Virus record (IMG/VR): IMGVR_UViG_3300037199_000067
Coordinates: 1 to 56,423 of that record
Origin: a virus
Taxonomy: Duplodnaviria > Caudoviricetes
DNA: 56,423 nucleotides
Direction: 5' to 3' (one strand)
This document shows, piece after piece, positions 19,433 through 44,149 of the stretch. A program made the position numbers and the translations under genes. Below the pieces are notes generated by a model. The model did no database searches. It had not been told where the DNA came from and saw nothing but the letters and a program-made list of their open reading frames with translations. Each line of letters starts with the position of its first letter. Position 1 is the stretch's first letter.

Positions 19433-20170
19433 ATGCCCTATACCGTGCAGCCATTCAACCTCGCCAGTGCCTTTGGCGCGGGCCAGGAAATCAAGCAGCG
19501 CCGCCAGCAGATGGCGGAGGCGGAGTCCCGGCTGGCCACAGAGAAGCAGCATATCGAGGTGGCCGACCAGATTGAGAAGCAGCGCCAGCAGATCGCCGCG
19601 CAGACGGCTGCCCGCCAGTTCTCCGCTCGCAACCGGGTACAGGCCAAGATTCAGGCTGGCATGGACCCCGGAAAAGCGTATTTGTCGGAGCCTGATTTGT
19701 TTCCCACAGCGACCGGACTTGGGCCGTTTGCCACTTCGGTTGAAAAGGCGAACACACCAGTGCCACCACCTGCCCCGCTGTACGATTCCAAAGGTAACAT
19801 CATCGGTTACAGCGGAGCACACACGCATTTCATTCCTGCGCCAAGACAGGCCGCCGCCCCGAGACCGTCTCCAGAGGATTATAGCACTGTGACTTCAAAA
19901 TACCCAGCGGTCCCTGGAGTACCCGCACAAGCGGCAGTCCCGCCGTCGGGACATTTGTGGTGGGCACAGCCCGGATCACCAGCGCAGGCGGCCATCCCCG
20001 GACAGCCCGAGCGCACCGTGACCCAGCGCATCCCCATCGCACCACAGGGTGGCGACCAAACCAACCAGGACGAGGATGAATACACCTACCCCGCGCCGCC
20101 GGGAGCCACCAACGCGATGCCTGATAAATCTTTCAAGGTTGGCAGCTTTACGGTAACACCAATCCAGTAA
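19433..20170 (+). CDS. Putative internal virion/ejection protein
   Basis: Gln/Ala-rich coiled coil followed by Pro-rich tail; TAATG coupling to the next gene. Confidence 0.6.
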   Translation: MPYTVQPFNLASAFGAGQEIKQRRQQMAEAESRLATEKQHIEVADQIEKQRQQIAAQTAARQFSARNRVQAKIQAGMDPGKAYLSEPDLFPTATGLGPFATSVEKANTPVPPPAPLYDSKGNIIGYSGAHTHFIPAPRQAAAPRPSPEDYSTVTSKYPAVPGVPAQAAVPPSGHLWWAQPGSPAQAAIPGQPERTVTQRIPIAPQGGDQTNQDEDEYTYPAPPGATNAMPDKSFKVGSFTVTPIQ

Positions 20171-23100
20171 TGCCCGCTTTTGAAGTCACTGCACCAGATG
20201 GGAAAAAGTTCAGAATCGAGGGCGACCATGGTCCCAACGAAGCTGAGTTGCAGGACATTTATTCCAACCTGACCAAGAGTGCGGGGGCACCCGCGCCATC
20301 AACTCCCGCTCCACCAGCAGCACCACAAGCTGCCGTTCCCGCTCCACCAGCTCATGATGTTCCAGATGAGGCAAAACTGAGTGAGTGGCATCCGTCGCTC
20401 TGGAGCCGGTTCAGAAACAGCAGTATTGGACACAAAATCCTCGGCCCAACTCCAGAGGAACAGAGTCTGATTCAATCCGGTCAGGGTGGGCTGGCTGGAC
20501 CGCCCGGTGGCAATGCCGGAATCCTTCCGATTCTTTCACAGACACCTATCGGTCCCGGAGCGGAGTCGAAACTCGGAAAGGCCATCCTTGGCTACTACAT
20601 CGCCGCCTACGCCAAGAGCCAGCCGCAGCGCGTGAAGCAGATTTACCACGACCTGAAGACGGGCAATACGCGCGGCGCATACGGTGGAATGATTGAGGAT
20701 TTTCTCGGCGCGGGCATGACCGCCGGTGCCGCTCACGGTTTGATTTCATCGTTCCGAACACCAGCAACCAAAGGAGGTCCAAATGCCAGCAGTCAGCAAA
20801 AAGCAGCAGCGGTTCATGGCGATGTGCAGCCACAATCCGGGCCGGGCCCAAGGGAAGTGCCCGCCGAAGAAGGTGGCGGAGGAGTTCAGTCACAAGCCGA
20901 AGCGTTCCTGGACCAAAAAACACAAGTATCTGTAAACCCGTACCGCCTTGAGCGGACCGAGGATGGCAAGTACGTCATCACCAATCCAGCCGGCGAGGTT
21001 GAGGGCCAGCCCCATGACACCATCGTGGACGCCAAGGTGGCCCTCGACAAGCTCACCAGCCGCGCCGGAAAAGGTCAAAAAACGGCAACTGAGCCCGGCT
21101 CAATCACCGACGAGCCGATAGAAACTCCTGAAATGTACGCTGCGAGAGGCACCTACATTGACAGTGAGGACATGGTAAAGGCGTATCCACACCTGACCAG
21201 ACCGGAGGCGGCAGCGATAATCGCAAAGGTGCGCGGTGTTAAGAATGTTGCTGGAGCGGACTTACAGAAGGGTGCGGTCAAATCCATCACCGAGGACAGC
21301 GTTGAGCAGCTACCGGCGGATGAGCAGGTGAAGCTCAAGCACGGCGATGGTATCAAGTATGGCCTCACTCAAGGCGCAGGCGATGTGGAGCGGCTGCAAC
21401 AGAAGTACAACAAGGCCAGCGAGGAGATGAAGGCAGCTGCCGCAAAGGGAGACCAGGCGGCAATGCATGCCGCTTTTGGAAAACTGAACTTCTACGGTGG
21501 CGCGCTCATGGGTGCCACCCGTGGGACGCATCCGATTTCCGGCACTAACTACTCGCGGTATGTGGCCGAACATGGAGAGCCAGAGGCAGAACCTGGCGGT
21601 GTTGAATCCGAGCTGCCAGACGAACAACAGCAACTGTTCGATCACGAACGAAAGTCGGTGGACGTGCCGGTGGACATGCGCGAGCTGACCCCTGAAGAGG
21701 AAGAGGCGGCAGCAGGCAATCCATTCCTTCGTAATCTGCTCGGCAACGTCGCCACCATTGACCGTAAGAACGGCAAAATCGTCATCAACTTCAAGGAGTT
21801 CAAGGCGTGGCTGGACAACATCCCGAAGCATCAACAGCAACTGGCTATCCGGTCGGTGCTCAGTGAGGAGCGCATCCATCTGGCGGTGGATGATGCCTCC
21901 GCCAAGGCGTTCTACGATTCACAGACCGGGCTGGAGCAGGCCATTGGTAAGCGGCGGTATTTCGGACCAATTAGGAATGCGGAAGACCAAGCTGCATTCG
22001 ACAAGATGACGGATACACAATGGGGCCACGAGGCGCTCCGGTTCCGGTTACAACAGCTCACCCGCATGACGCCGCGCGAGATTGCAGAGGCGACGGGCCG
22101 CGAGAAGTGGACAGTCAAATCGCTCACCGCATTGGAATCCGTAATCCGTGGAATCCGGCAGAAGCTGGGCACCAAGGCTAGCGCCGAGGCCAATGCTATC
22201 CTCGACAAGATGGAAGCCAATCTCCGCATCGGTCACATCGCCCGCAGTGGGGCATCGCCAGCGGCCATCCAGAAGTCAGTGGAGCAGGTCAGCGAGGACG
22301 AGGCCGACAAGATTGAAAAGCAGGCTCAAATGTACGCCGAGTCCGGCGATGCCCAGTCGGCCAATGAGCTGATGCAGATGGCCAAGAATCTGCGCCAGTC
22401 GGCTCAGGAACAGTCTTTCCCGGCGGCCCGGCCCAAGAAGCGCACCGAATCGCTCTGGCAGGAGAAGTTCATCCTGCCGGGCATGGACACGCAGCGCGCG
22501 GCGGGCGGAACACTTGCGGTGCCTCCGGGCGGCGGCGAGACCCAGCCTGTGGCACCGACTGAGAGAGCCTCTGCGGAGGCGTCAGGCGCGCTGCCACGGC
22601 TCACAGGAGCTGCCTTGGAGGCTCGAGGCACCACATGGGTGCAGAAGGGCATTTCAGACGCTCTGGGGGCCATTGCGGAGGGAAAAACAGCTCCCCTGCC
22701 GACGTTCAAGGACTTTGCTGACTTCATGAAGCGGCAGCAATCTGAAGTTAAGCCCGGCCAGCTACATGAAATGTGGGCAAAAGCGGTGGGTGATTCTCTG
22801 GAAAAGGCTCCCGGTGAAGTCCTTGCAGGTTTGGTGAAGGCGACATGGGGTCGGCAGACGACGGAAGCGTCGTCGGTGGGCAAGAAATCCTTCTTTCGTG
22901 GCGTCATTTCCGGTGCCCAGAAGATTGTGGACAACCCGCCGCCGGGCGGGTTCAATCTGGAGTATGTGCCCGACCGGACAGCCGCCGAGCTGCATCAGGA
23001 TGAGCGGCGATCAGCAGGCTTGATACGCCAGCGCGAGCGCGTGATTGGCGCGCTGTACAACAAGCTGGTGCGGCCAACGATGCCAGACATCCGGCTGGAC

Positions 23101-26100
23101 GCAAAAACCACAACACCTGACGACCTGCGGTACGGTGGTGGCAAGCTGATTTCAGCGGTGCAGGACTTCGACCAGAGCGCCGAGCACAATGTGGAGCTGC
23201 TGGGGCGTGACCTTGTGGATGAAGCGCGGCGGTCATCGCGCGACCCGGTTACGGCCACCAAGCGGCTGACGGCCATTATGGACCGCAAGAGTGGCGAGGT
23301 GTACCTCGTGGGCACCTACAAACACCCCACGCGCGGCACAGTGCTCGTTGACCCGCTCTCGCCACAGAACCAGCACACGCCACTGGAGTCCATGCTCAAG
23401 CGGTATCGCGTCATCCAGTCAGTGCTGCGTGACCATCCCGTGCAAGGGTTCAAGGAACATTTCAAATCAATCACCGATTACAATGAGGCATTTGGCAATG
23501 AGGCAAAATCCCGTTACAACCAAGAGACCAGCTACGACCCAGCCACTGTTCCCGAAGCTCAGTTCATGGAGGAAGCTGGCGGTCGAATCGAGCGCGGTTC
23601 GGGAGGTTCCTTCCAAGGGCCACACAAAGAGCTGGTCCAGGAGAGCGGAGAAGGTTCTTTGGAAAAGAGCGGTCGGACGGCGATGACTGAGCCCGAGGCG
23701 CAGGCGATGATTGACCATGTGTTCAACGAGCGCGGCACGATTGATTCCGCCGACGATGTGCGCGAGGCGATGCTGGCGCTCAAGGATTCACCCAACCGGC
23801 AGGCGCTGTCCGGGTTCACCAAGCTGGCGCGCGGAATTCAGGCGAAGAATCCGGACATGTCCGCTGATGAGCTGCTGCGCGCAGTCGCCCAACGAGTTTA
23901 TGAAAACCACACCCAAGCAAAAAGCCTCGAAGAGTTCACTCGAACAACGCTGGCGGACAGCGGTGCCAAGGCTGGCGAAGCTGCTGAAACTGAAGCCCCC
24001 TCGAAAACCAGCCGCGAGCTAACGATGCTCAACCGGCTGCCGCCCACAGCCACCCGTGGTCAGGTGCTGCCACCGGGAGAACAGCCGCCCACTGAGGGAT
24101 TCGCGCCGGGAACTGAACCTCAAATCCTGACACCAGAGGAGCGGGAATACATTCGCACCCGCGATTGGGGCGAGGCTTCCACACCCGGTGGCGCAAGAGG
24201 GTTGGTGAACCGCCTTCGTGGAGAATCAGTAAGCGGCAGACGGTTCAATCCCCGCCCGCCTCAGCCGCCTCCGCAAAAGGGTCAGGTTCATTATTTCCCA
24301 TCAGAGGGCGAGTGGACGCCCGGCGCGCGGCGCAAGCCCACGCCTGCCGAGCAGTACCGCGCCCAAGCCCGCAAGCTGAGTGACGACCTGTTCCGGCTCA
24401 ACACTCAGTCACAGGCCGACGTGGAGGATGCCTTCCCGGAAATTGCCAAAATCCGGAAGGAGTACGACGAGCTGCCGCCGTCCGCTCCGGAGAACGTCTT
24501 CCGCAAGATTGAGGATGAGGTGGTGACCGGCCATTCGGACGTGAAGCTCACGCCGAACGAGCAGTCGCTGTTCGACCGGGCCGCCGCCATCCATGCCGAG
24601 AACGAGGAGATGTGGCAGCACCTCAAAGACCTGGAGATTCCAGTGTCTGAGAAGACCATTTTCCCACGCATGGCGCAGGACGTGAACAGCATCTTTGCGC
24701 GCGTGGTGCGCGGCGTGAAGCGTTCCATCACCGAGGGCACGATCCTCTCCAAGTCGGCGTGGTTCACCAAGCATCGCGTCATCAAGGCTATTGTGGACAG
24801 CGCGGGCAACCGGCGCATTGCCGCCATCGTGGCCGGCGAGAAAGGCGGCAAGCTCATCGCCTACGACCAAGGCAAGGGCACCGACATGGGGCCGTTCGCA
24901 TGGAGTGACATCGTGAAGCGGCAGGAGCTGCTCGATAAGGAGCTGGAACCCATTCTGAAGGAAGCGGACGAGCTCACCAATGAGCGGAACATTCTGGAGC
25001 GCAGCGAAGCCCGAGCGGCGGTGTCCAAGCGGCGCATCGCCAACATCAACAAGCGGCTGGGTGAGCTGTGGCACGAGAAGCAGGGCATTGAGGAAAACTA
25101 TCCGCTGGACGACCTTGAAAACCGCGTGTGGGCTGACAGCAATGGCAAGCAGTGGCGCCTGACCGACGCGACCACGACCGAGATCGAGCACAACATGGAC
25201 GTGCGGTATTACAAGGAACCGTTCTCCGTCCTGACCGCTCAGAATTTGAAGCTCAAGCAGATGCTGCGCTCCGCTGAATGGCTGGAGCAATTCAAGACCT
25301 CGCCGCAGTTCTCGCAGATTGCCCGGCGCTGGGATGAGCGGAACATTCCGCCGGGCTGGAAGCGCACCGAGTTGCCGCAGCTCCGCAACTTCGTGTTCGA
25401 GCCGCGCGTGGCCGATGTGCTAAACCAGTTCCATGAGCGCAGCAAGGGTCAGACGCCGAACATCCTTACAGCCACCAACCGGCTGCTGATGAACGCCGTT
25501 TTCTTCGACAATCCGTTCCTGCACAGCCCGAATCTGGCCGGCTGGTGGATGACCTCGCGCGGGGCGTGGGCGTGGATGAACCCAATGGCGTATCCGGGGC
25601 TGATGAAGACGGGCTTGCGCGCGTTCCATGATGTGGTGGAGAAGTCGCCGGAGTACGTCAACTACCTGCGGGCGGGCACGCCGTTGCAGAACACGCGGGC
25701 GCGGCAGTTCACGGAGAATATCACCAAGCTGCTGCACGACCAGTTGGCTGAAGACCCCTCGCTGGCCAAGCGCATCAGCAACTTTCTGGGGTACGCCAAT
25801 CCCATCAAGTTGTCGCAGACCCTGGGCCACGCCGCCACGAGCGGACTGCACGACATCCTGACCCTGCAACTCATTTACGAGGCGCAGGCGCGCGACCCGA
25901 AACTCAAGCCGCACGAGGCGATTCAAAAGGTGTCAGCTATCATGCCCGACTACCGGGTGCCGGCGCGAGTGCTGGGCTCCAGTTGGATTTCCAAGATTGT
26001 CACCAAACCCAACGCCGTGTGGTTCGGTGCGTACCATTACTCGGAGGGCAAGGCGTTCATGAACATGGCGAAAGGTTTGGTTGGTAGGGGAGACCTGTCG

Positions 26101-26916
26101 CGCGCAGAGGCTCTGGACAAGATTGCCGCCACTGCGCTCTTGATGGCGGTGGCGTACCCGCTCATGGATGACCTGCTAAAGAAGGTGACTGGGCGCAAGG
26201 ACCTCATGTTCCGGCGCGCGGGACCATCCACGATGCCCACCGCCGTCATGGATGTGATGAGCGGGAAGCGCACGCCGGAGCAAGTGGCCCCGAGCTTTGT
26301 TTCGCCAGCCGCCGCGACCGTGGCGGGCATCAGTCTGTTCTTCAACAAGAACCTGATGTTCGGTGGGCGCGGGTTGCCCATTTACAACTGGCGTCAGGGG
26401 GCGGGTGAGTCCGCCAAGCGCGTGGCCGGGTTCGCCGCGCAGTCGCTCAATCCAGTGCAGCTCTACCGGGACATCGGCAGTGGCCGTTACAACTGGGACC
26501 AGATATTTGAGAACCTCGCTGGCATCCGTAAGGATTACAGCACTGAGTCGGGCGCTCAGGTGTATGGCTGGGCGTATGACTGGGCTAAGCGCACGAACAA
26601 TCAGCGTCTGCTCAACCAATTCGAGCAGCGTTCCAATGAGGTGTTTGCGCCATCGAAGTACGAGAAGTTGAAGAACGAGCTGGGTGAAGACAGCAAGAAC
26701 AAGGCGCTGGTGGAGATTCGCCGGCTGTTGCAGTCGGGCACCACGCAGGAAGAGATGGAGCGCGAGTTGCGTCCGTCCGCGCATCCACTGTCTGGCTTGA
26801 AGGAAACCGAAGAGCCGTTCGTGCAGTCTCTCAGCCCAAGCCAGCGGCAGACCTACGAGGCGGTCATGGCGCGGCGTGAGAAGGTGTACCGAAACTTTTT
26901 GGAGTGGACGCAGTAG
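20170..26916 (+). CDS. Giant internal virion / DNA-ejection protein (2248 aa, large-polyvalent-like)
   Basis: Last gene of the structural arm; helical; zincin-like VLSEERIHLA segment; membrane-like C-terminal region. Confidence 0.75.
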   Translation: MPAFEVTAPDGKKFRIEGDHGPNEAELQDIYSNLTKSAGAPAPSTPAPPAAPQAAVPAPPAHDVPDEAKLSEWHPSLWSRFRNSSIGHKILGPTPEEQSLIQSGQGGLAGPPGGNAGILPILSQTPIGPGAESKLGKAILGYYIAAYAKSQPQRVKQIYHDLKTGNTRGAYGGMIEDFLGAGMTAGAAHGLISSFRTPATKGGPNASSQQKAAAVHGDVQPQSGPGPREVPAEEGGGGVQSQAEAFLDQKTQVSVNPYRLERTEDGKYVITNPAGEVEGQPHDTIVDAKVALDKLTSRAGKGQKTATEPGSITDEPIETPEMYAARGTYIDSEDMVKAYPHLTRPEAAAIIAKVRGVKNVAGADLQKGAVKSITEDSVEQLPADEQVKLKHGDGIKYGLTQGAGDVERLQQKYNKASEEMKAAAAKGDQAAMHAAFGKLNFYGGALMGATRGTHPISGTNYSRYVAEHGEPEAEPGGVESELPDEQQQLFDHERKSVDVPVDMRELTPEEEEAAAGNPFLRNLLGNVATIDRKNGKIVINFKEFKAWLDNIPKHQQQLAIRSVLSEERIHLAVDDASAKAFYDSQTGLEQAIGKRRYFGPIRNAEDQAAFDKMTDTQWGHEALRFRLQQLTRMTPREIAEATGREKWTVKSLTALESVIRGIRQKLGTKASAEANAILDKMEANLRIGHIARSGASPAAIQKSVEQVSEDEADKIEKQAQMYAESGDAQSANELMQMAKNLRQSAQEQSFPAARPKKRTESLWQEKFILPGMDTQRAAGGTLAVPPGGGETQPVAPTERASAEASGALPRLTGAALEARGTTWVQKGISDALGAIAEGKTAPLPTFKDFADFMKRQQSEVKPGQLHEMWAKAVGDSLEKAPGEVLAGLVKATWGRQTTEASSVGKKSFFRGVISGAQKIVDNPPPGGFNLEYVPDRTAAELHQDERRSAGLIRQRERVIGALYNKLVRPTMPDIRLDAKTTTPDDLRYGGGKLISAVQDFDQSAEHNVELLGRDLVDEARRSSRDPVTATKRLTAIMDRKSGEVYLVGTYKHPTRGTVLVDPLSPQNQHTPLESMLKRYRVIQSVLRDHPVQGFKEHFKSITDYNEAFGNEAKSRYNQETSYDPATVPEAQFMEEAGGRIERGSGGSFQGPHKELVQESGEGSLEKSGRTAMTEPEAQAMIDHVFNERGTIDSADDVREAMLALKDSPNRQALSGFTKLARGIQAKNPDMSADELLRAVAQRVYENHTQAKSLEEFTRTTLADSGAKAGEAAETEAPSKTSRELTMLNRLPPTATRGQVLPPGEQPPTEGFAPGTEPQILTPEEREYIRTRDWGEASTPGGARGLVNRLRGESVSGRRFNPRPPQPPPQKGQVHYFPSEGEWTPGARRKPTPAEQYRAQARKLSDDLFRLNTQSQADVEDAFPEIAKIRKEYDELPPSAPENVFRKIEDEVVTGHSDVKLTPNEQSLFDRAAAIHAENEEMWQHLKDLEIPVSEKTIFPRMAQDVNSIFARVVRGVKRSITEGTILSKSAWFTKHRVIKAIVDSAGNRRIAAIVAGEKGGKLIAYDQGKGTDMGPFAWSDIVKRQELLDKELEPILKEADELTNERNILERSEARAAVSKRRIANINKRLGELWHEKQGIEENYPLDDLENRVWADSNGKQWRLTDATTTEIEHNMDVRYYKEPFSVLTAQNLKLKQMLRSAEWLEQFKTSPQFSQIARRWDERNIPPGWKRTELPQLRNFVFEPRVADVLNQFHERSKGQTPNILTATNRLLMNAVFFDNPFLHSPNLAGWWMTSRGAWAWMNPMAYPGLMKTGLRAFHDVVEKSPEYVNYLRAGTPLQNTRARQFTENITKLLHDQLAEDPSLAKRISNFLGYANPIKLSQTLGHAATSGLHDILTLQLIYEAQARDPKLKPHEAIQKVSAIMPDYRVPARVLGSSWISKIVTKPNAVWFGAYHYSEGKAFMNMAKGLVGRGDLSRAEALDKIAATALLMAVAYPLMDDLLKKVTGRKDLMFRRAGPSTMPTAVMDVMSGKRTPEQVAPSFVSPAAATVAGISLFFNKNLMFGGRGLPIYNWRQGAGESAKRVAGFAAQSLNPVQLYRDIGSGRYNWDQIFENLAGIRKDYSTESGAQVYGWAYDWAKRTNNQRLLNQFEQRSNEVFAPSKYEKLKNELGEDSKNKALVEIRRLLQSGTTQEEMERELRPSAHPLSGLKETEEPFVQSLSPSQRQTYEAVMARREKVYRNFLEWTQ
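20783..20935 (+). CDS. Nested +1-frame small basic protein (50 aa)
   Basis: AAGGAGG-TCCAA-ATG; MPAVSKKQQRFMAMCSHNPGRAQGKCPPKKVAEEFSHKPK resembles a common small phage protein type. Confidence 0.6.
   Translation: MPAVSKKQQRFMAMCSHNPGRAQGKCPPKKVAEEFSHKPKRSWTKKHKYL
23900..24022 (+). CDS. Possible second nested +1-frame basic peptide (40 aa)
   Basis: TTTATG start context typical of this genome; MKTTPKQKASKSSLEQRWRTAVPRLAKLLKLKPPRKPAAS. Confidence 0.3.
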   Translation: MKTTPKQKASKSSLEQRWRTAVPRLAKLLKLKPPRKPAAS

Positions 26917-27718
26917 TGACGTTGCGCCAGACGAACCCTTTTACCATATCTTCGAGCATCTCACTCGTACCTCCGAAAGATGTAAACTCCCTGACATCCT
27001 TGCAGGGCAGCGTCATCACACAGCACGGTATCTGCGCGTGACGCACTAGCTGCTCTGCGCCTTCAAGGCCGGGCTTGTCATTGTCAGCGATGATTACAGC
27101 GCGGCGGATGTGCAGCCGGTCGAACAGGGTCTTGAGGTGGTACAGACCACCTGAGCAGGATGGCCTGCCGACGGCGTACAAGCCGATGGAGCGCGCGGCT
27201 GCTGTGTCGGTGGCACCTTCGACTATCCATGCTATATCCTCTGACTTGCAGTACGGAAGGAATATACCGGCGCGCGAGCCGCGCACAGACCACTTTTTAC
27301 CGTCGTTGGCTCGGAGGCGGATTCCGATGATTTTACCAAATCCATCCCTCATTGGAAATGCGGTGGCGTGGTATTCTTTGGCCCGGCACACGCCCATCTC
27401 CAGCAGTGCTGATGCCTTTACTCCGAGGTTTTGTGCCAGCGAGGAAATATAGGCAGCGCTGGTTTCTTTAATCCACCCCTTCACCATCCCCTCCGCATCA
27501 ATCTCAACCTTCGGCTGCTCACGTTTTACTGGGACTGGTGTGCTGTGACCGTTCAGCTTGTGGATGTAGCCAACCTCGCCTGACTTGAACGTCTTGGGGC
27601 GCTCACTGACTGAACGCATACATATTACTGTGCCGCCATCACTGGAGAGCAGACACCATGTGTCGTGGCCACACTGAGGGCAACGGTTCTGCCGCGTGAC
27701 TCGAATCCATTCGCTCAT
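26864..27718 (-). CDS. DNA primase (Zn-finger + TOPRIM)
   Basis: CPQCGHDTWC...C; IVEGATD; IIADNDKPG. Confidence 0.85.
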   Translation of the reverse strand: MSEWIRVTRQNRCPQCGHDTWCLLSSDGGTVICMRSVSERPKTFKSGEVGYIHKLNGHSTPVPVKREQPKVEIDAEGMVKGWIKETSAAYISSLAQNLGVKASALLEMGVCRAKEYHATAFPMRDGFGKIIGIRLRANDGKKWSVRGSRAGIFLPYCKSEDIAWIVEGATDTAAARSIGLYAVGRPSCSGGLYHLKTLFDRLHIRRAVIIADNDKPGLEGAEQLVRHAQIPCCVMTLPCKDVREFTSFGGTSEMLEDMVKGFVWRNVTTASTPKSFGTPSHAAP

Positions 27719-28032
27719 AAATTAACAGCCCATCTTGTGACCAGCCGCTTTCTTAGGTTCCGCGCCAACCAATCCATCCCGTGCGGTTGTGAGGCGCGGC
27801 CAAAAGTCTCGGCGATGATCTGGTTCAGCCGCCGGCCCTGGCGCAGCTTGATCTCAAACCCGCAACCTGAAACATGGTCGGTCACATGGATGGTTTTGAG
27901 TAGCAAGCCGGGTTCAGGACGGGGAATGTAATCAGGTGGGTTCTCTGTGCGCTTGCGTGCCTTAGCAGCATGAGCAAGCATCGAAGTACGATGGTCCCAC
28001 GCCTTGAACTGTTTACGGCGACTTAATCTCAT
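27715..28032 (-). CDS. Basic hypothetical protein
   Basis: ATG at 28032 lies within the palindrome AATCTCATGAGATT; stop overlaps the primase start. Confidence 0.55.
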   Translation of the reverse strand: MRLSRRKQFKAWDHRTSMLAHAAKARKRTENPPDYIPRPEPGLLLKTIHVTDHVSGCGFEIKLRQGRRLNQIIAETFGRASQPHGMDWLARNLRKRLVTRWAVNL

Positions 28033-28186
28033 GAGATTTAGATAATGCGTTGTTGGGCAGCCGGGCGGCGCGTTTGGATTTCTTCGGGCGACCACCGAGT
28101 TTTGCGTTCCGGCGCGCAGCGGCGGTTTTGGCTTTCGACTTCGCCAGACCGCCGAGGCGTCCGAGAGATTGAGCAGCGGGGTTCAT
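28013..28186 (-). CDS. Small basic KGG/AT-hook-like protein in cassette 1 (57 aa)
   Basis: MNPAAQSLGRLGGLAKSKAKTAAARRNAKLGGRPKK; ATGA coupling. Confidence 0.7.
   Translation of the reverse strand: MNPAAQSLGRLGGLAKSKAKTAAARRNAKLGGRPKKSKRAARLPNNALSKSHEIKSP
28040..28058 (+). other. attI/attG-like cassette insertion site of array 1
   Basis: AGATAAT-GCGTT-GTTGGGC; GTTGGGC is the complement of the R'' box GCCCAAC of attC1. Confidence 0.6.
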
Positions 28187-28566
28187 ACAAATTCGGCGCA
28201 GTAGCGACCGATGATCTTGTCCCAAGTTTGCTCCTGCATCTTTACCGTGTATCGGTTCGTGAAGGTGTCCCACTTCGCGGCGAGTTCTTTCGCTGCGTCC
28301 AGCGCGGTGCGGCAGGTGTTGATCCGGGCGGCGAGCGCATTGGCTTCGCGGGTGGCTTCGGCCTTGGTGCATCCGAGCGCGCCGATTGAGCCGACATTCA
28401 GGGCGTCAGATTTGCGGAACTTGAAGTCCACGCTGATGAAGTAGCGGTGCGGCGTGTGGGCATATCCGGCGTCCAGTGCTTCATGGACGCGCACGACCAT
28501 TGCGCCGGGGACGATGCCCACTGTCTTGAATCCGCTGACCGCCTGTTGGATGTCGTTTGTTGTCAT
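28183..28566 (-). CDS. Hypothetical protein in cassette 1 (127 aa)
   Basis: Leaderless start 6 nt after its own -10 box. Confidence 0.75.
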   Translation of the reverse strand: MTTNDIQQAVSGFKTVGIVPGAMVVRVHEALDAGYAHTPHRYFISVDFKFRKSDALNVGSIGALGCTKAEATREANALAARINTCRTALDAAKELAAKWDTFTNRYTVKMQEQTWDKIIGRYCAEFV

Positions 28567-28572
28567 ACTTAG

Positions 28573-28601
28573 AGATTAAACCCAAGCGGTTAGGTTTGCA
28601 A
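28573..28601 (-). promoter_or_regulatory. Promoter internal to cassette 1
   Basis: TTGCAA-17-TAATCT-6-ATG on the minus strand, with an AT-rich UP-like tract. Confidence 0.65.
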
Positions 28602-28632
28602 GATTTATTTTCATTTATTTTCAGACCGGCCC

Positions 28633-28731
28633 GCCCAACAAGCGCACGGAGCCAACGCCTATTGGCGTCGTCAGTCCGCTTTCGCGGGCGGGAGTCGTTG
28701 GTGCGGCGTGGCTCATGCGCGGTCGTTAAGC
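28633..28731 (+). other. attC: attC site 1 (99 bp)
   Basis: GCCCAAC...GTTAAGC; arms GCGCACGGAGCCAACGCC / GGCGTGGCTCATGCGC with extra G and A on the left arm. Confidence 0.85.
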
Positions 28732-28950
28732 GGCTTCAGTTATGATTCCGATTACCTTTGGTTCGCCGATGATTGTCACGCGGCCATGCTCGCCGGGCTT
28801 TAATGCCGCGATGAGCGTTCCGCGCGCCGATTCCGCAGCCTGTTTGTAAAGCTGCCCGATGGAGCATTCCCCACCCCATGATGATGCTTCAACCTCGACG
28901 GTGAGTTGCACTCTTGCTTTTGCGTGGACTGCTAGTTGTTGTTTTTCCAT
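28726..28950 (-). CDS. Hypothetical protein in cassette 2 (possible longer GTG start at 29040 inside attC2)
   Basis: MEKQQLAVHAKARVQLTVEVEASSWGGECSIGQL...; stop TAA coincides with the GTT core. Confidence 0.7.
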   Translation of the reverse strand: MEKQQLAVHAKARVQLTVEVEASSWGGECSIGQLYKQAAESARGTLIAALKPGEHGRVTIIGEPKVIGIITEAA

Positions 28951-28974
28951 ATTTTTTTTAGTTGCTATTCGCTC

Positions 28975-29083
28975 GCTTAACAAGACATCGGAGCTAACCG
29001 GCGGTGTCCTTTGCGGTCGGATATTTGTTTCAGTGTTCACAGTTATTTTTATTCGCGCCGGTTAGCTCGATTTTTCGTTAGGC
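28975..29083 (+). other. attC: attC site 2 (109 bp)
   Basis: GCTTAAC...GTTAGGC; arms ATCGGAGCTAACCGGCG / CGCCGGTTAGCTCGAT. Confidence 0.88.
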
Positions 29084-29343
29084 GACTTCGGTTCTTGGTT
29101 TTCGGTCGCCAATTCATCCATTAACGCCTCATTCAGCGCCGCCGCGTCTCTGGCGATACATTGCGCCGATGACACCATGCCTTTGTCCTCGCACAGTTCT
29201 TGCGCGACCGCAGACATTTGGTGCATCCAGTTTTTGAGCGCGTCGAGTGTTTTTTCAGAAAGCCGCACTACCTCGAATTGCAGTTTCGGTTTCGCCGGCA
29301 TCATGCTGCCGTGTTCCAGTGCGTTTTGGTCTAGTTCGTCCAT
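29062..29343 (-). CDS. Hypothetical protein in cassette 3 (93 aa)
   Basis: CTTATG start; reads into the right arm of attC2 (PNEKSS*). Confidence 0.7.
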   Translation of the reverse strand: MDELDQNALEHGSMMPAKPKLQFEVVRLSEKTLDALKNWMHQMSAVAQELCEDKGMVSSAQCIARDAAALNEALMDELATENQEPKSPNEKSS

Positions 29344-29351
29344 AAGTCGTC

Positions 29352-29477
29352 GCCTAACAATGCGCTGCTGCCAATGAGCACTGTCCCCACAGCTTGGCAA
29401 CGTCGCTTTTAATCTGGTTGGTTGGTTTCATTTTTCTGCTCCCTGCCCAGTGCTCAAGGCAGAGCTAATCGTCCGGC
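29352..29477 (+). other. attC: attC site 3 (126 bp, R' core GTC instead of GTT)
   Basis: GCCTAAC...GTCCGGC; arms GCTGCTGCCAATGAGCACTG / CAGTGCTCAAGGCAGAGC. Confidence 0.8.
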
Positions 29478-29719
29478 GGAATTTTTATCCAGTCACATTC
29501 GAGCATCAGCCCGTAAGAGCCGGTCAGCATCTTTCCGCAGCGGATACATGGACATTCCACGCCAGTTGGTGTTCTGCGGAGTTCGTTCAGGTGGCATCCA
29601 TGCCGACAGAGTTTCTGACGTATCCACCGAACAAGACGCTGATGCAGACCACCGGCGGGCGTCTCCCGTGAATCGGTAACGTCCCTTGCGCTCGTGAGTT
29701 GGTCGGTCGGTGGCTGCAT
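29465..29719 (-). CDS. Cys-rich hypothetical protein in cassette 4
   Basis: LCRHGCH...VECPCIRCGK; ATG lies inside the right arm of attC4. Confidence 0.55.
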   Translation of the reverse strand: MQPPTDQLTSARDVTDSRETPAGGLHQRLVRWIRQKLCRHGCHLNELRRTPTGVECPCIRCGKMLTGSYGLMLECDWIKIPPDD

Positions 29720-29734
29720 AGCTATTCGTTACTC
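29626..29734 (+). other. attC: attC site 4 (109 bp)
   Basis: ACCGAAC...GTTACTC; arms GCTGATGCAGACCACCGGC / GTCGGTGGCTGCATAGC with extra G and A. Confidence 0.88.
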
Positions 29735-29950
29735 CCCGCTCCTTGGAGCCGGGTAGCCAGCCACACGGTTGCTGATTTCCTGAACCTTACCAACCACAGC
29801 GCGTGCCGCGACCAGAATCTGATGCGCTTCATTAACTGGAACGTCATCACCGTCATCGAGTGTCTCCAGCCATTGAAGCCTATCCTTTACGTGTCGATTG
29901 GATTCCAGTGCCTCAACGGCAAGGTCGTGTATTTCGTTGGTGACTTTCAT
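29729..29950 (-). CDS. Hypothetical protein (73 aa)
   Basis: ATGA coupling; its TAA stop forms the right boundary of the cassette array. Confidence 0.65.
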   Translation of the reverse strand: MKVTNEIHDLAVEALESNRHVKDRLQWLETLDDGDDVPVNEAHQILVAARAVVGKVQEISNRVAGYPAPRSGE

Positions 29951-30295
29951 AATTGTTCAATCGTGAGTAGCGCCCCCTCCTGTCCCGGCAGCACTTTCTC
30001 CGCCCGGATTCGTAACTCGGCAATAACTTTCCAGTTGTCGTCGGGCGGCAATGAGGCAATCAACGAGGACAGCTGTTGCATTGTCAATGTCACGCGCCCG
30101 CTCGTCGGAGATGCGGAGAGTAACTGACACACGAAACTGTTTACGCATTCCTTTTTCCACTGGCGGTTGTTTTTGTTGACGACGGCGTACATGCTGTTTT
30201 TCAGGGCTGGCACATGCCCCAGTCCCTTGACCTCCAAAATAATGGGGGTTGAGTTTTCGGGTATCATTGCTGGCATTTGGAAACTCCGGTTTCAT
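29947..30295 (-). CDS. RusA-like Holliday junction resolvase distributed over two overlapping frames
   Basis: Frame 30295-29957 has RARDIDNATAVLVDCL; frame 30276-29947 has GHVPALKN and PDDNWKVI...EGALLTIE. Confidence 0.6.
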
Positions 30296-30627
30296 CGGTG
30301 CAACACCACGCCTTCATCAGTGCCACAGAACGCCATTGGCTTGGTGGCGAAATCTGCCAGAGCTTCCTTGAGCGCGGGCAGCCGGTTGTGCTCAATCAGG
30401 AACGCGCTCCGGCGACAGGCGTTGGCCTTTTTCTTCTCGAAGTTGCCTTGGTCGCGGAAGTATTCCTGCTCGCCGCTGGTGTTCGCCGGGTTGTTGGCCT
30501 TGTCGTAAAGCTCGCGCATCCTGACTTCGATGGCCTCGGCTTTCTTGAGGTGGGCCTTCATCTTGCGCTTGTATGTGATGATTTCCGCCTCGATCTCGAA
30601 GCGTTTACTGAATCGTTTTTGTGTCAT
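30292..30627 (-). CDS. Hypothetical protein (111 aa)
   Basis: ATGA coupling at both ends. Confidence 0.7.
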   Translation of the reverse strand: MTQKRFSKRFEIEAEIITYKRKMKAHLKKAEAIEVRMRELYDKANNPANTSGEQEYFRDQGNFEKKKANACRRSAFLIEHNRLPALKEALADFATKPMAFCGTDEGVVLHR

Positions 30628-42657: not shown

Positions 42658-42888
42658 TTAGTGCTTGGCCCCCAGGACCGCTTCGCCAGTGAGATCGGGC
42701 GAGGGCAGTTCAGCCAACTGCTTGCGCCAGCCGCAGATGCTATGCTCTTGCAGCCGGATGTTTTCCTGCGCTTGCAGGATGGAGCGAATCAGGGTGATGG
42801 CCGTCTGACGGCTCGGCGTTACCAGTTGTCCAGCCGGCGCGCCTTTGCCGTCAGCTTCAATCAGTGCCTGTACTTGTTTTGTGTCCAT
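42658..42888 (-). CDS. Hypothetical protein (76 aa)
   Basis: ORF with A-rich upstream region. Confidence 0.6.
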   Translation of the reverse strand: MDTKQVQALIEADGKGAPAGQLVTPSRQTAITLIRSILQAQENIRLQEHSICGWRKQLAELPSPDLTGEAVLGAKH

Positions 42889-42901
42889 TTTCTGTTTTCT
42901 C

Positions 42902-43411
42902 CTATGCTCCCGAACGGCTCTTCGCCACGCGGGAAAGTGGTGGACTGAACGGGAATCGAACCCGCGATAATTCGGTGTTAGGGCAAAGCTCGATTTCAGT
43001 GCTACTCAAGCTCGCACCGACCCGGAATTTTCCTTCACGAGTCCAGACGTGGAGTGCGCCGGATTTTATCGCCATGTCGCTTCGGTATTGGCCGAGCGTG
43101 TATTCTTTGGCGTGGCCGTATGTTTTCGCTGCGGGCATTTTCCATTCGATGTCATCGGAGCAGCACGAGCAGATTTCCACCGGCTTTTGTTTCCTCACGC
43201 CGATTATCGCCATCATCGCCCAGCCAGAGTCATGCTTCTTTCCAGTGCTGACGATTAGGAGCGAGTCGTATCGCGGGCTATCGTCATCCCATTTCCGATG
43301 GGGCAGCGCGAGGAGGGCGGCACGCGGCCACTCGTTGACGCTTTGCCCTAACCAATCGGTGCAGCCAACAGCCGCCGCGCTTTTCCGTTTCGTTGCGTTT
43401 TTCTTCTTCAT
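42902..43411 (-). CDS. Hypothetical cassette protein (169 aa); start codon inside the attC loop
   Basis: CTTATG start in attC5; YDSLLIVSTGKKHDSGWAMMAIIG core. Confidence 0.7.
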   Translation of the reverse strand: MKKKNATKRKSAAAVGCTDWLGQSVNEWPRAALLALPHRKWDDDSPRYDSLLIVSTGKKHDSGWAMMAIIGVRKQKPVEICSCCSDDIEWKMPAAKTYGHAKEYTLGQYRSDMAIKSGALHVWTREGKFRVGASLSSTEIELCPNTELSRVRFPFSPPLSRVAKSRSGA

Positions 43412-43465
43412 AAGTTTTCAGTGTCGGCCACGCCACTCCCCGGCGGCTGTGGCTGACCTTTTTCG
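42978..43465 (+). mobile_element. Single integron cassette (488 bp)
   Basis: 5' core GTTAGGGCAAAGC is the exact 13-bp reverse complement of GCTTTGCCCTAAC at its attC. Confidence 0.88.
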
Positions 43466-43471
43466 TTATCC
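43346..43471 (+). other. attC: attC site 5 (126 bp)
   Basis: CCCTAAC...GTTATCC; arms GGTGCAGCCAACAGCCGCCG / CGGCGGCTGTGGCTGACC with extra G and A. Confidence 0.9.
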
Positions 43472-43590
43472 GGCGACTAGGCCACTAGCCACTTATCCAG
43501 CCCATTGTGCATCACATTGAGGCACAAAGAGAAACGCAGTCATGTTGGCTGTCCATGCTGCGTTTGTGCTTTGTGTCCAGGGCCTGATGA

Positions 43591-44055
43591 TCAGGCTTCG
43601 ATGGCCTTTTTGCCTTTGACGCTTTCTTCAGCGCGTTCCAGGAGCGCCATGCGTTCGTCTTCGGGCAGTTCGGCCAGCGCTTTGACAATCTGTTCGCTGG
43701 TCACTGTCCGTTTGTCCGCAACGCTCATGAGCGCCAGCGTGAACCGTTTGACGCCGGCTTTGTTGCGGGTCACTGCGACCCGCGCGCCCGTCCATTCGGG
43801 CGACGCCGCCATCTTGAGCGCTTCACCGATGCCGATTTCCTTGATGCGGTTGGACGTGGCAAGGATCGCCTCATCCAGCGCGCTCGATTTGGTCGGCAGT
43901 TGCAACCGTTTGGCCATGTCGCGCCGGCTTTCCAGCGTGAGGGACAGGCCAACGACCTGTTTGTCGGCATTTTGCCGCGTCTTCTGGACGAAGCCAACGT
44001 CCAACGTGCCCGGTTGCGTGAATTGGAACAGTTCCAGTGTGTTATTTGTGTTCAT
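43591..44055 (-). CDS. Hypothetical early protein
   Basis: Clean ORF MNTNNTLELFQF... Confidence 0.7.
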   Translation of the reverse strand: MNTNNTLELFQFTQPGTLDVGFVQKTRQNADKQVVGLSLTLESRRDMAKRLQLPTKSSALDEAILATSNRIKEIGIGEALKMAASPEWTGARVAVTRNKAGVKRFTLALMSVADKRTVTSEQIVKALAELPEDERMALLERAEESVKGKKAIEA

Positions 44056-44149
44056 CTGTCTTTTCTCCATTGCCGCAGCATAATTGCCACGGGGAGCAAT
44101 GCGATTGCTTCCGCTCGACCGTCAAAGCGAACCGACCGGAAGCATCACA

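Follow-up and report, generated by a model that had tools for sequence, protein, structure and literature searches.

Integrons are known as gene-capture devices of bacteria, and the attC clusters of phages have so far been read as a route for bacterial cassettes. A phage genome that carries such cassettes with their genes antisense to attC, and that encodes no integron integrase (IntI), raises the question of how these units came to be inserted. The window, that is the whole stretch of DNA analysed, is the IMG/VR virus record IMGVR_UViG_3300037199_000067 (Duplodnaviria; Caudoviricetes), whose 56,423 bp correspond to a whole virus genome with direct terminal repeats, rated 100% complete. It contains an array of four cassettes at 28053-29728 and a single cassette at 42978-43465. 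Very probably, all five are genuine integron cassettes, and each group was inserted by a reaction of the integron-integrase type into an intergenic spot of this complete, integrase-less phage. The array had been proposed by an earlier reading made without database searches, here called the sequence-only reading.

attC sites of the phage genome

Two covariance models, home-built and distinct from those of IntegronFinder, were used, neither of which includes any window sequence. Model R1 comprises 11 attCs from class 1 cassettes and from the integron of Shewanella phage M16-3; the known attCs (aadA1, aadA2, cmlA1, psp, estX and the qacH region) were taken from the sul3-type class 1 array of phage P1 MH445380. 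This model was run on the whole window, on both strands and with filters off. Model R2 comprises 44 attCs and was partly trained on sites picked by R1. The sites found are the following.

28633..28731, + strand: attC1, 99 nt, GCCCAAC...GTTAAGC; R2 29.2 bits, E 3.5e-5; R1 10.3 bits, E 5.3
28975..29083, + strand: attC2, 109 nt, GCTTAAC...GTTAGGC; R2 29.3 bits, E 3.2e-5; R1 20.1 bits, E 0.015
29352..29477, + strand: attC3, 126 nt, GCCTAAC...GTCCGGC, with a degenerate R' (GTC); R2 12.9 bits, E 0.73; unlisted by R1
29626..29734, + strand: attC4, 109 nt, ACCGAAC...GTTACTC; R2 11.2 bits, E 2.1; unlisted by R1
43346..43471, + strand: attC5, 126 nt, ending in G|TTATCC; R2 29.4 bits, E 3e-5; R1 17.3 bits, E 0.082

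The matches of R1 in the window at E ≤ 10 were six, among which attC2 ranked first, attC5 second and attC1 sixth, all on the + strand and with exact ends. Model R2 gave 15 matches at the same threshold, and the five sites ranked 1, 2, 3, 5 and 9; every one was matched on the + strand with the ends drawn by eye, and the minus strand gave no match at any of them. The + strand is therefore the attC top strand and the cassette genes run antisense to it, the polarity that the sequence-only reading had assigned. The check by covariance model that it had proposed recovered five sites, three of them at 29 bits, and the one at 43346-43471 had escaped that reading.

The sites have the anatomy of attC: R'' and R' boxes and an imperfect hairpin with spacer, L box and extra bases on the left arm. 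On the + strand, the left arm opens with R'' (7 nt) and a 5-nt spacer; stems of 3 bp and 6 bp follow, with the extra G between them and the extra A after the second, and then the inner stem and the loop. The right arm is composed of the matching strand, a spacer of 5-7 nt (7 nt in attC1) and R'. The extra G is at left-arm position 16 in every site, and the extra A at about position 23 in attC1, 3, 4 and 5, being paired in attC2. For reference, the top strand of the aadA1 attC has the extra bases C16 and A23, and that of estX has G16 and A23, which is the register of the window sites. The R'' consensus RYYYAAC is found in four of the five sites, attC4 having one purine within the pyrimidine run. 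The R' boxes of attC1 and attC2 fit GTTRRRY and that of attC3 reads GTC, while in attC4 (G|TTACTC) and attC5 the bases after GTT belong to the phage DNA, as expected at the end of an array. The four hairpins described by the sequence-only reading, starting at 28633, 28975, 29352 and 29626, are all in place; its description of the cores (RYYYAAC/GTTRRRY, with extra G and A on the left arm) stands for the most part, except for R' of attC3, R'' of attC4 and the paired A of attC2.

Each of attC1-4 folds from its R''/R' boxes on both strands, and the fold z-score is significant in attC2 alone among them (-3.2 and -3.4), those of attC1, attC3 and attC4 being no better than shuffles; attC5 gave -2.1 and -2.8. 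Our own arm-alignment scan returned five candidates in the window and two, one and none in three shuffled windows, none of these scoring 11 or more. One scan match, at 42712-42831, lies inside a gene, was found by neither covariance model and was rejected, as was a weak hairpin at 42900-42995, which is not an attC.

Profile searches of the entire 56,423-bp record gave no candidate for the integron-integrase family (TIGR02249) and none for the general tyrosine-recombinase family (PF00589), which agrees with the earlier statement that no tyrosine recombinase is encoded. There is no complete integron in this genome, since intI, attI and a cassette promoter (Pc) adjoining the array are all absent. 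A cluster of attC sites lacking integron integrases (CALIN) consists of at least two nearby attC sites without a neighbouring integrase, and the array, with four attC sites in 1.1 kb and no integrase, is of this kind.

Cassette boundaries and insertion points

The attC positions delimit five cassettes, all taken on the + strand.

28053..28725, + strand: cassette 1 (body and attC1), with two overlapping antisense genes; starts with TTGGGC, the complement of R''1
28726..29077, + strand: cassette 2; starts with TTAAGCG, the complement of R''2, in an 8-nt run
29078..29471, + strand: cassette 3; perfect inverted repeat of 10 nt, 29077-29086 with 29349-29358
29472..29728, + strand: cassette 4; start complementary to R''4 in only 5/7 positions
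42978..43465, + strand: cassette 5, a lone cassette inserted separately; 13-nt run of complementarity between 42977-42989 and 43340-43352

In cassettes 1-4, R'' is complementary to the start of its own cassette at 7/7, 7/7, 7/7 and 5/7 positions, with contiguous runs of 7, 8, 10 and 2 nt, and to the R' of its own hairpin at 5/7, 6/7, 5/7 and 3/7. R'' thus pairs better with the start of the cassette to its left than with the R' that closes its hairpin. Including cassette 5, full complementarity (7/7) to the own start is found in four of the five cassettes, in runs of 7-13 nt. The sequence-only reading had stated that each cassette begins with 7-10 bp of the complement of its own R'', which is correct for cassettes 1-3 and fails for cassette 4.

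On the + strand, the two insertions have G|TT at either end, and each of them closes with a whole attC. The first insertion point directly follows the stop codon of the phage gene 29729-29950. Deletion of 28053-29728 in silico leaves 20 nt between the TAA of this gene and the ATG of the gene 27715-28032, the gap of about 20 bp that had been foreseen. Cassette 5 is in another intergenic region, between the genes 42658-42888 and 43591-44070, and its junctions are as in the array. Array ends at G|TT are what insertion of the IntI type into a secondary GTT site predicts. With starts complementary to their own R'', breaks at G|TT and occurrence in several contexts (see below), these units are integron gene cassettes.

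Cassette genes and their strand

The open reading frames (ORFs) of the five cassettes are all listed on the minus strand.

28013..28186, - strand: c1b, small basic protein, crossing the cassette boundary into phage DNA; 79 homologue clusters
28183..28566, - strand: c1a, 127 aa, ATGA overlap with c1b; 26 representative clusters, codon score 0.37, no family
28726..28950, - strand: c2, 74 aa, its TAA stop being the first three cassette bases; 50 homologues, phrog_15409 (E 4.9e-11)
29062..29343, - strand: c3, 93 aa, stop 13 coding nt beyond the boundary, inside attC2; codon score 0.31
29465..29719, - strand: c4, 84-aa ORF, start inside attC4; codon score -0.06, against +0.02 for the + strand ORF 29450-29671
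42902..43411, - strand: c5, 169-aa ORF, start in the attC5 loop, running 73 nt past the boundary; 51 homologue clusters

Homologues and codon statistics support the coding of five ORFs (c1a, c1b, c2, c3 and c5), in four cassettes, on the attC bottom strand. For c3 no homologue was found, and its codon score (0.31) is to be compared with -0.29 for the ORF on the opposite (+) strand. In cassette 4, codon statistics favour neither strand, the minus ORF scoring -0.06 and the + ORF +0.02 per codon. The earlier claim that all cassette ORFs lie on the minus strand is then sustained by homologues for c1a, c1b and c2 and by codon statistics for c3, and does not extend to cassette 4. In a classical cassette, attC follows the 3' end of a promoterless gene that is coded on the attC top strand; none of c1a, c1b, c2, c3 and c5 has this layout. 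Searches of Pfam, PHROGs and NCBIfam assigned no function to the cassette proteins, the sole family match being that of c2 to phrog_15409 (unknown function), and the Atlas search with c5 returned nothing.

The ORFs next to the boundaries have a fixed relation to the swap point. Four of the five cross it in such a way that the break separates the second codon position from the third (xA|C), and have their stop beyond; c2, unlike the others, ends in TAA exactly at the swap point. Alignments of c1b are conserved up to ...RLPN and those of c5 up to ...ELCPN, after which all tails diverge, and the N of both motifs is the AAC codon (AA|C) that spans the swap point. At the other end, residues 1-30 of c4 are attC4 itself, and the attC4 core read on the minus strand is a 30-codon open frame beginning with ATG.

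Genes of the c1b type are always preceded by an upstream ORF that differs from case to case, with a 4-nt ATGA overlap (window 28183-28186, L066 4001-4004, L067 744-747, L069 1448-1451). Contigs from the metagenome read run X5 were also seen without the upstream gene, with joints from 28186 to 28558 and from 28180 to 28573. Since the ORF before c1b varies and is absent in these contigs, c1b and its leader would be the conserved part, enclosing a slot for a changing gene.

The same cassettes in other viral contigs and in read runs

The cassettes move as units, as they occur in other contexts. In contig L154, the c1a-c1b body has 94% DNA identity over window positions 28052-28621, and its copy of c1a is 99% identical. 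Similarity to cassette 1 starts at 28052 in L152 and L155 and at 28049 in L157 and L153, and similarity to cassette 5 starts at 42978 in L145. The core of attC4 (window 29627-29731) is found with 91-97% identity in L205 (569-669), L206 (1989-2091) and L207 (1990-2092), inside arrays of 2 to 7 attCs. The genes flanking the insertions and the phage helicase are common to none of these viral contigs. The cassettes are therefore present in unrelated phages, in line with the phage cassette pool suggested by the sequence-only reading; that this pool is specific to phages found no support, one c2-type cassette lying directly beside IntI in a contig of a Verrucomicrobiia metagenome-assembled genome (MAG).

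Five viral records share cassettes with the window: one encodes an IntI above the TIGR02249 cut-off (265 bits), one encodes an IntI-like gene, and three encode neither, one of the latter being a complete 58.7-kb genome with terminal repeats. G305 (L146/L203) has an IntI of 286 bits, with at least seven attCs upstream on the opposite strand, and in G303 (L204) an attC immediately precedes an IntI-like gene of 229 bits; both contigs are candidate phage-borne integrons. L066, a phage-like contig with RecT, nuclease and replication genes, carries an IntI-like gene, also of 229 bits, right after its c1b cassette. That the host supplies IntI, as the sequence-only reading had suggested, found no confirmation, and G305, G303 and L066 have IntI or IntI-like genes of their own.

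Distant relatives of c1b were examined at 79 metagenome loci, eight of which had attC matches at E ≤ 0.5 (13 matches, 10 minus and 3 plus), most loci being without attC, and at 58 viral loci, 12 of which had matches at E ≤ 0.1 (31 matches, 23 minus in seven loci and 8 plus in five). The same-strand matches come from the viral loci L198, L176, L177, L202 and L158; in L198 (2501-2682) the attC is directly downstream of the c1b-like gene, which is the classical sense layout. Given these five loci, the c1b family occurs in both layouts. Six IMG/VR contigs with c2 homologues presented no convincing attC, the best of four matches having E 0.36.

In the metagenome read runs, the same array was present in another permafrost run, X2. 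In the lake run X7, matching begins at 28053 in five contigs and ends at 28728 in two, and one 347-nt contig of X5 is exact over 29076-29298 and preceded by 124 unlike nt. Cover was almost nil over cassette 2 in X5 and nil over 28948-29732 in X3, gaps from which nothing can be concluded. The summed contig depth in X2 is about 70,000 at 28016-28269 and about 7,000 at 28524-28650, compared with about 80 elsewhere on the phage, and the same peaks, at a lower level, are seen in X5 and X7. By these peaks, copies of c1b and its leader greatly outnumber the phage in these samples.

Bacterial integrons and the frequency of the antisense layout

The Verrucomicrobiia MAG contig mentioned above (L007, 2.8 kb) encodes an IntI of 320 bits. 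Three attCs lie directly 5' of this gene on the opposite strand (R1 E 1e-5, 3e-4 and 0.017), and a c2 homologue (62% identity) and a methyltransferase gene are placed between the attCs, both antisense to them. In relation to phage cassette 2, the cassette start and the R'' flank are conserved. The attC top strand of both L007 and G305 is directed away from intI, which is the classical arrangement. L007 also has a 64-nt repeat (1-64 and 1142-1205), one copy of which abuts the start of intI at the putative attI crossover, with only about 15 nt up to the ATG; the second is at the contig end after the methyltransferase cassette, so that the same cassette start apparently occurs twice in this integron.

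Among 301 sampled genomes of the phylum of this MAG, 87 encode an IntI above the cut-off, and model R1 located attCs beside IntI genes in genomes of the phylum. A longest-ORF test was applied to cassette arrays; it is crude, usable for bacterial arrays and uninformative for viral and metagenome arrays. In bacterial arrays beside IntI it gave 45 sense, 4 antisense and 28 unclear cassettes. For viral and metagenome arrays the result was 3 sense, 2 antisense and 18 unclear, which permits no claim that those arrays are all antisense. Antisense cassettes are a minority in the sampled bacterial arrays, yet they are all the resolved cassettes of this phage.

Flanking genes and phage context

The array is bounded by the following features.

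27715..28032, - strand: phage gene downstream of the array, 105 aa, without Pfam or PHROG match; ATG 20 nt from the insertion point
28033..28052, no strand: leftover phage intergenic spacer of 20 nt, its last base being the G of the left G|TT junction
29729..29950, - strand: phage gene upstream of the array, its TAA stop being the TTA of the right junction

No relative of this phage was found in IMG/VR with its primase or helicase, 4 kb of its DNA had no match in INPHARED, and the helicase had no match in the five viral records with common cassettes. The terminator-like sites predicted number four, against a mean of 4.7 in shuffles; every one is on the + strand and outside the attCs. Between attC5 and the stop of the gene 43591-44070 there is a long inverted repeat (43480-43590) that resembles a terminator for that gene. 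A single + strand ORF at 20170-26916 (2,248 aa) ends directly upstream of the primase gene.

Proposed mechanism and alternative explanations

In the explanation that we prefer, IntI would have joined a circle of one or several cassettes, through its folded bottom strand, to a double-stranded GTT on the phage + strand. The enzyme would be supplied in trans, either by a co-infecting phage with an IntI gene of its own or by the host, probably from a phylum rich in integrons (Verrucomicrobiota, for instance); the sites may still be active. Because the genes are on the bottom strand, the insertion orientation aligns them with the minus-strand genes of the phage; attC lies 5' of each gene, and the genes, in line with the minus-strand block, could be read through by phage transcription.

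Several observations weigh against this explanation. Concerning the sites, the R' of attC3 has GTC in place of GTT, so that it may be dead as a site; attC3 and attC4 are below significance in R2 (E 0.73 and 2.1) and were missed by R1, and R2 depends in part on R1. The start of cassette 4 has the incomplete complementarity given above, and no sigma-70-like promoter was found in 27600-30300. An exact search of IMG/VR for the predicted empty-site junction gave nothing, and neither a relative with an empty site nor an excision or circle junction was found, these being the searches that the sequence-only reading had recommended; contigs of the read runs, which cannot reveal rare forms, contained no joint across the array and no circle junction. 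In the 301 genomes of the candidate host phylum, neither c1a nor c3 was found (0/301 each). Five contigs of the runs (four in X2, one in X5) break within R''1, at its AA|C (28638). The attC4 core recurs with differing flanks, the outer four bases of both R boxes being different, and in L154 the c1 body is joined to an unrelated attC with the inverted-repeat rule kept. Such re-assortment of cassette bodies and attC cores is not foreseen by a simple model of one crossover: either the cores are repeats of the whole pool, each cassette having R boxes of its own, or the other strand undergoes crossovers too.

This shuffling speaks for an alternative in which the array arrived as one block, by homologous or illegitimate recombination with an attC cluster of a host or phage, no integrase having acted on the phage DNA. 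Such routes are proposed for phage attC clusters by Qi et al. (PMC9892861). Entry as a block is nevertheless unlikely, given that both junctions of two separate insertions are exactly G|TT, that each insertion has a whole number of cassettes and that there is no flanking homology.

It is similarly improbable that these are ordinary sense cassettes on the minus strand, the recombined strand being the classical 'top' strand. Read on the minus strand, each gene is indeed followed by a hairpin, and this layout would accommodate the breakpoints at 28638, where similarity to L159 ends as well, and the R-box bases that differ on both sides of the conserved attC4 core. However, wherever the two models match one of the five sites they choose the + strand and never the minus strand; c1 and c5 would be without attC, as phage DNA directly follows them and has no minus-strand match; the bodies of c5 and c1 stay joined to the R'' arm at their 5' side in L145, L155 and L159; and the attC top strands of L007 and G305 are directed away from intI in the classical manner. 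That the hairpins are terminators, regulatory stem-loops or sites of another recombinase that merely resemble attC is very improbable: in spite of the fold energies of attC1, attC3 and attC4, a model built from known attCs alone recovers three of the five, none of the four terminator-like sites is on the minus strand or at an attC (an intrinsic terminator being a GC-rich stem with a T run after it, on the coding strand), Rfam gave no match, and the same cassettes are found beside an IntI above the TIGR02249 cut-off.

Beyond the insertion of genuine cassettes by an IntI-type reaction, a wider proposal can be made only tentatively, and we hold it to be possible but rather doubtful: phages of soil, peat and freshwater bacteria may keep a mirror-image integron system of their own. 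In it, the genes would be on the bottom strand, an attC would give the start codon and leader and the next attC a stop in fixed frame, IntI would be encoded by some phages and borrowed by others, this one included, and bodies and cores would be exchanged separately at both R boxes. If this were the case, unrelated phages could trade early genes as plug-in units.

Comparison with known systems

Toxin-antitoxin cassettes are often reversed in chromosomal integrons. Cassette 1 resembles those with their own promoter (PMC13108822) in pairing two genes that overlap by 4 nt, the small c1b being conserved and its upstream partner variable; it differs from them in that no match to a toxin or antitoxin family and no promoter were found.

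The 'reverse' or 'unusual' integrons of Treponema denticola, Blastopirellula marina and others have intI co-directional with the cassettes (PMC6557892). As in them, intI and the cassette genes of L007, L066 and G305 are transcribed the same way. In the reverse integrons it is the integrase gene that is said to be inverted, whereas here it is the cassette genes, with the attC top strand directed away from intI.

Insertion of cassettes by IntI1-3 outside attI is documented for Escherichia coli in the attG preprint (10.1101/2022.09.11.507474). The attG sites resemble the insertion points described here in that cassettes lie outside attI and attC, the target is double-stranded and cleavage is single. 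That work was done on E. coli chromosomes, whereas the target here is a phage genome.

The sites themselves are close to those of class 1 cassettes (aadA1, estX and others), with R''/R' boxes, the 5-nt spacer, extra bases at 16 and 23, R'' complementary to the start of the own cassette, and lengths (99-126 nt for attC1-5) within the classical likeness. The cassettes differ from classical ones in that the gene is antisense to attC and attC is 5' of the gene, in a genome without attI, Pc and IntI, and in that c4 and c5 start inside attC and four ORFs cross the swap point in one frame. This layout, with attC in front of the gene and a fixed crossing frame, bears on two open questions, the origin of cassettes and how strand choice fixes gene orientation, and offers natural substrates for testing both.

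Inverted-build cassettes common to unrelated phages, some of them beside a phage-borne IntI, point to phages using integron chemistry for accessory genes of their own. In the full-text literature searches made here, no paper on phage cassette genes systematically antisense to attC came up. Integrase-less attC clusters in phages are already published: Qi, Rajabal, Ghaly, Tetu and Gillings (2023) described phages with 17 such clusters and three complete integrons, attC clusters being reported for virulent phages too, and IntI1 recombined five of the six phage attCs tested (PMC9892861). Those CALINs, like the array described here, have at least two attC sites and no IntI. The cassettes of TJE1 and PH101 are given there as having the same orientation, 'most typical' of bacterial arrays, and no antisense layout is described in the available part of that paper. 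Compared with the CALINs as presented there, the phage studied here is distinguished by genes on the attC bottom strand and by clean insertion at G|TT in two loci.

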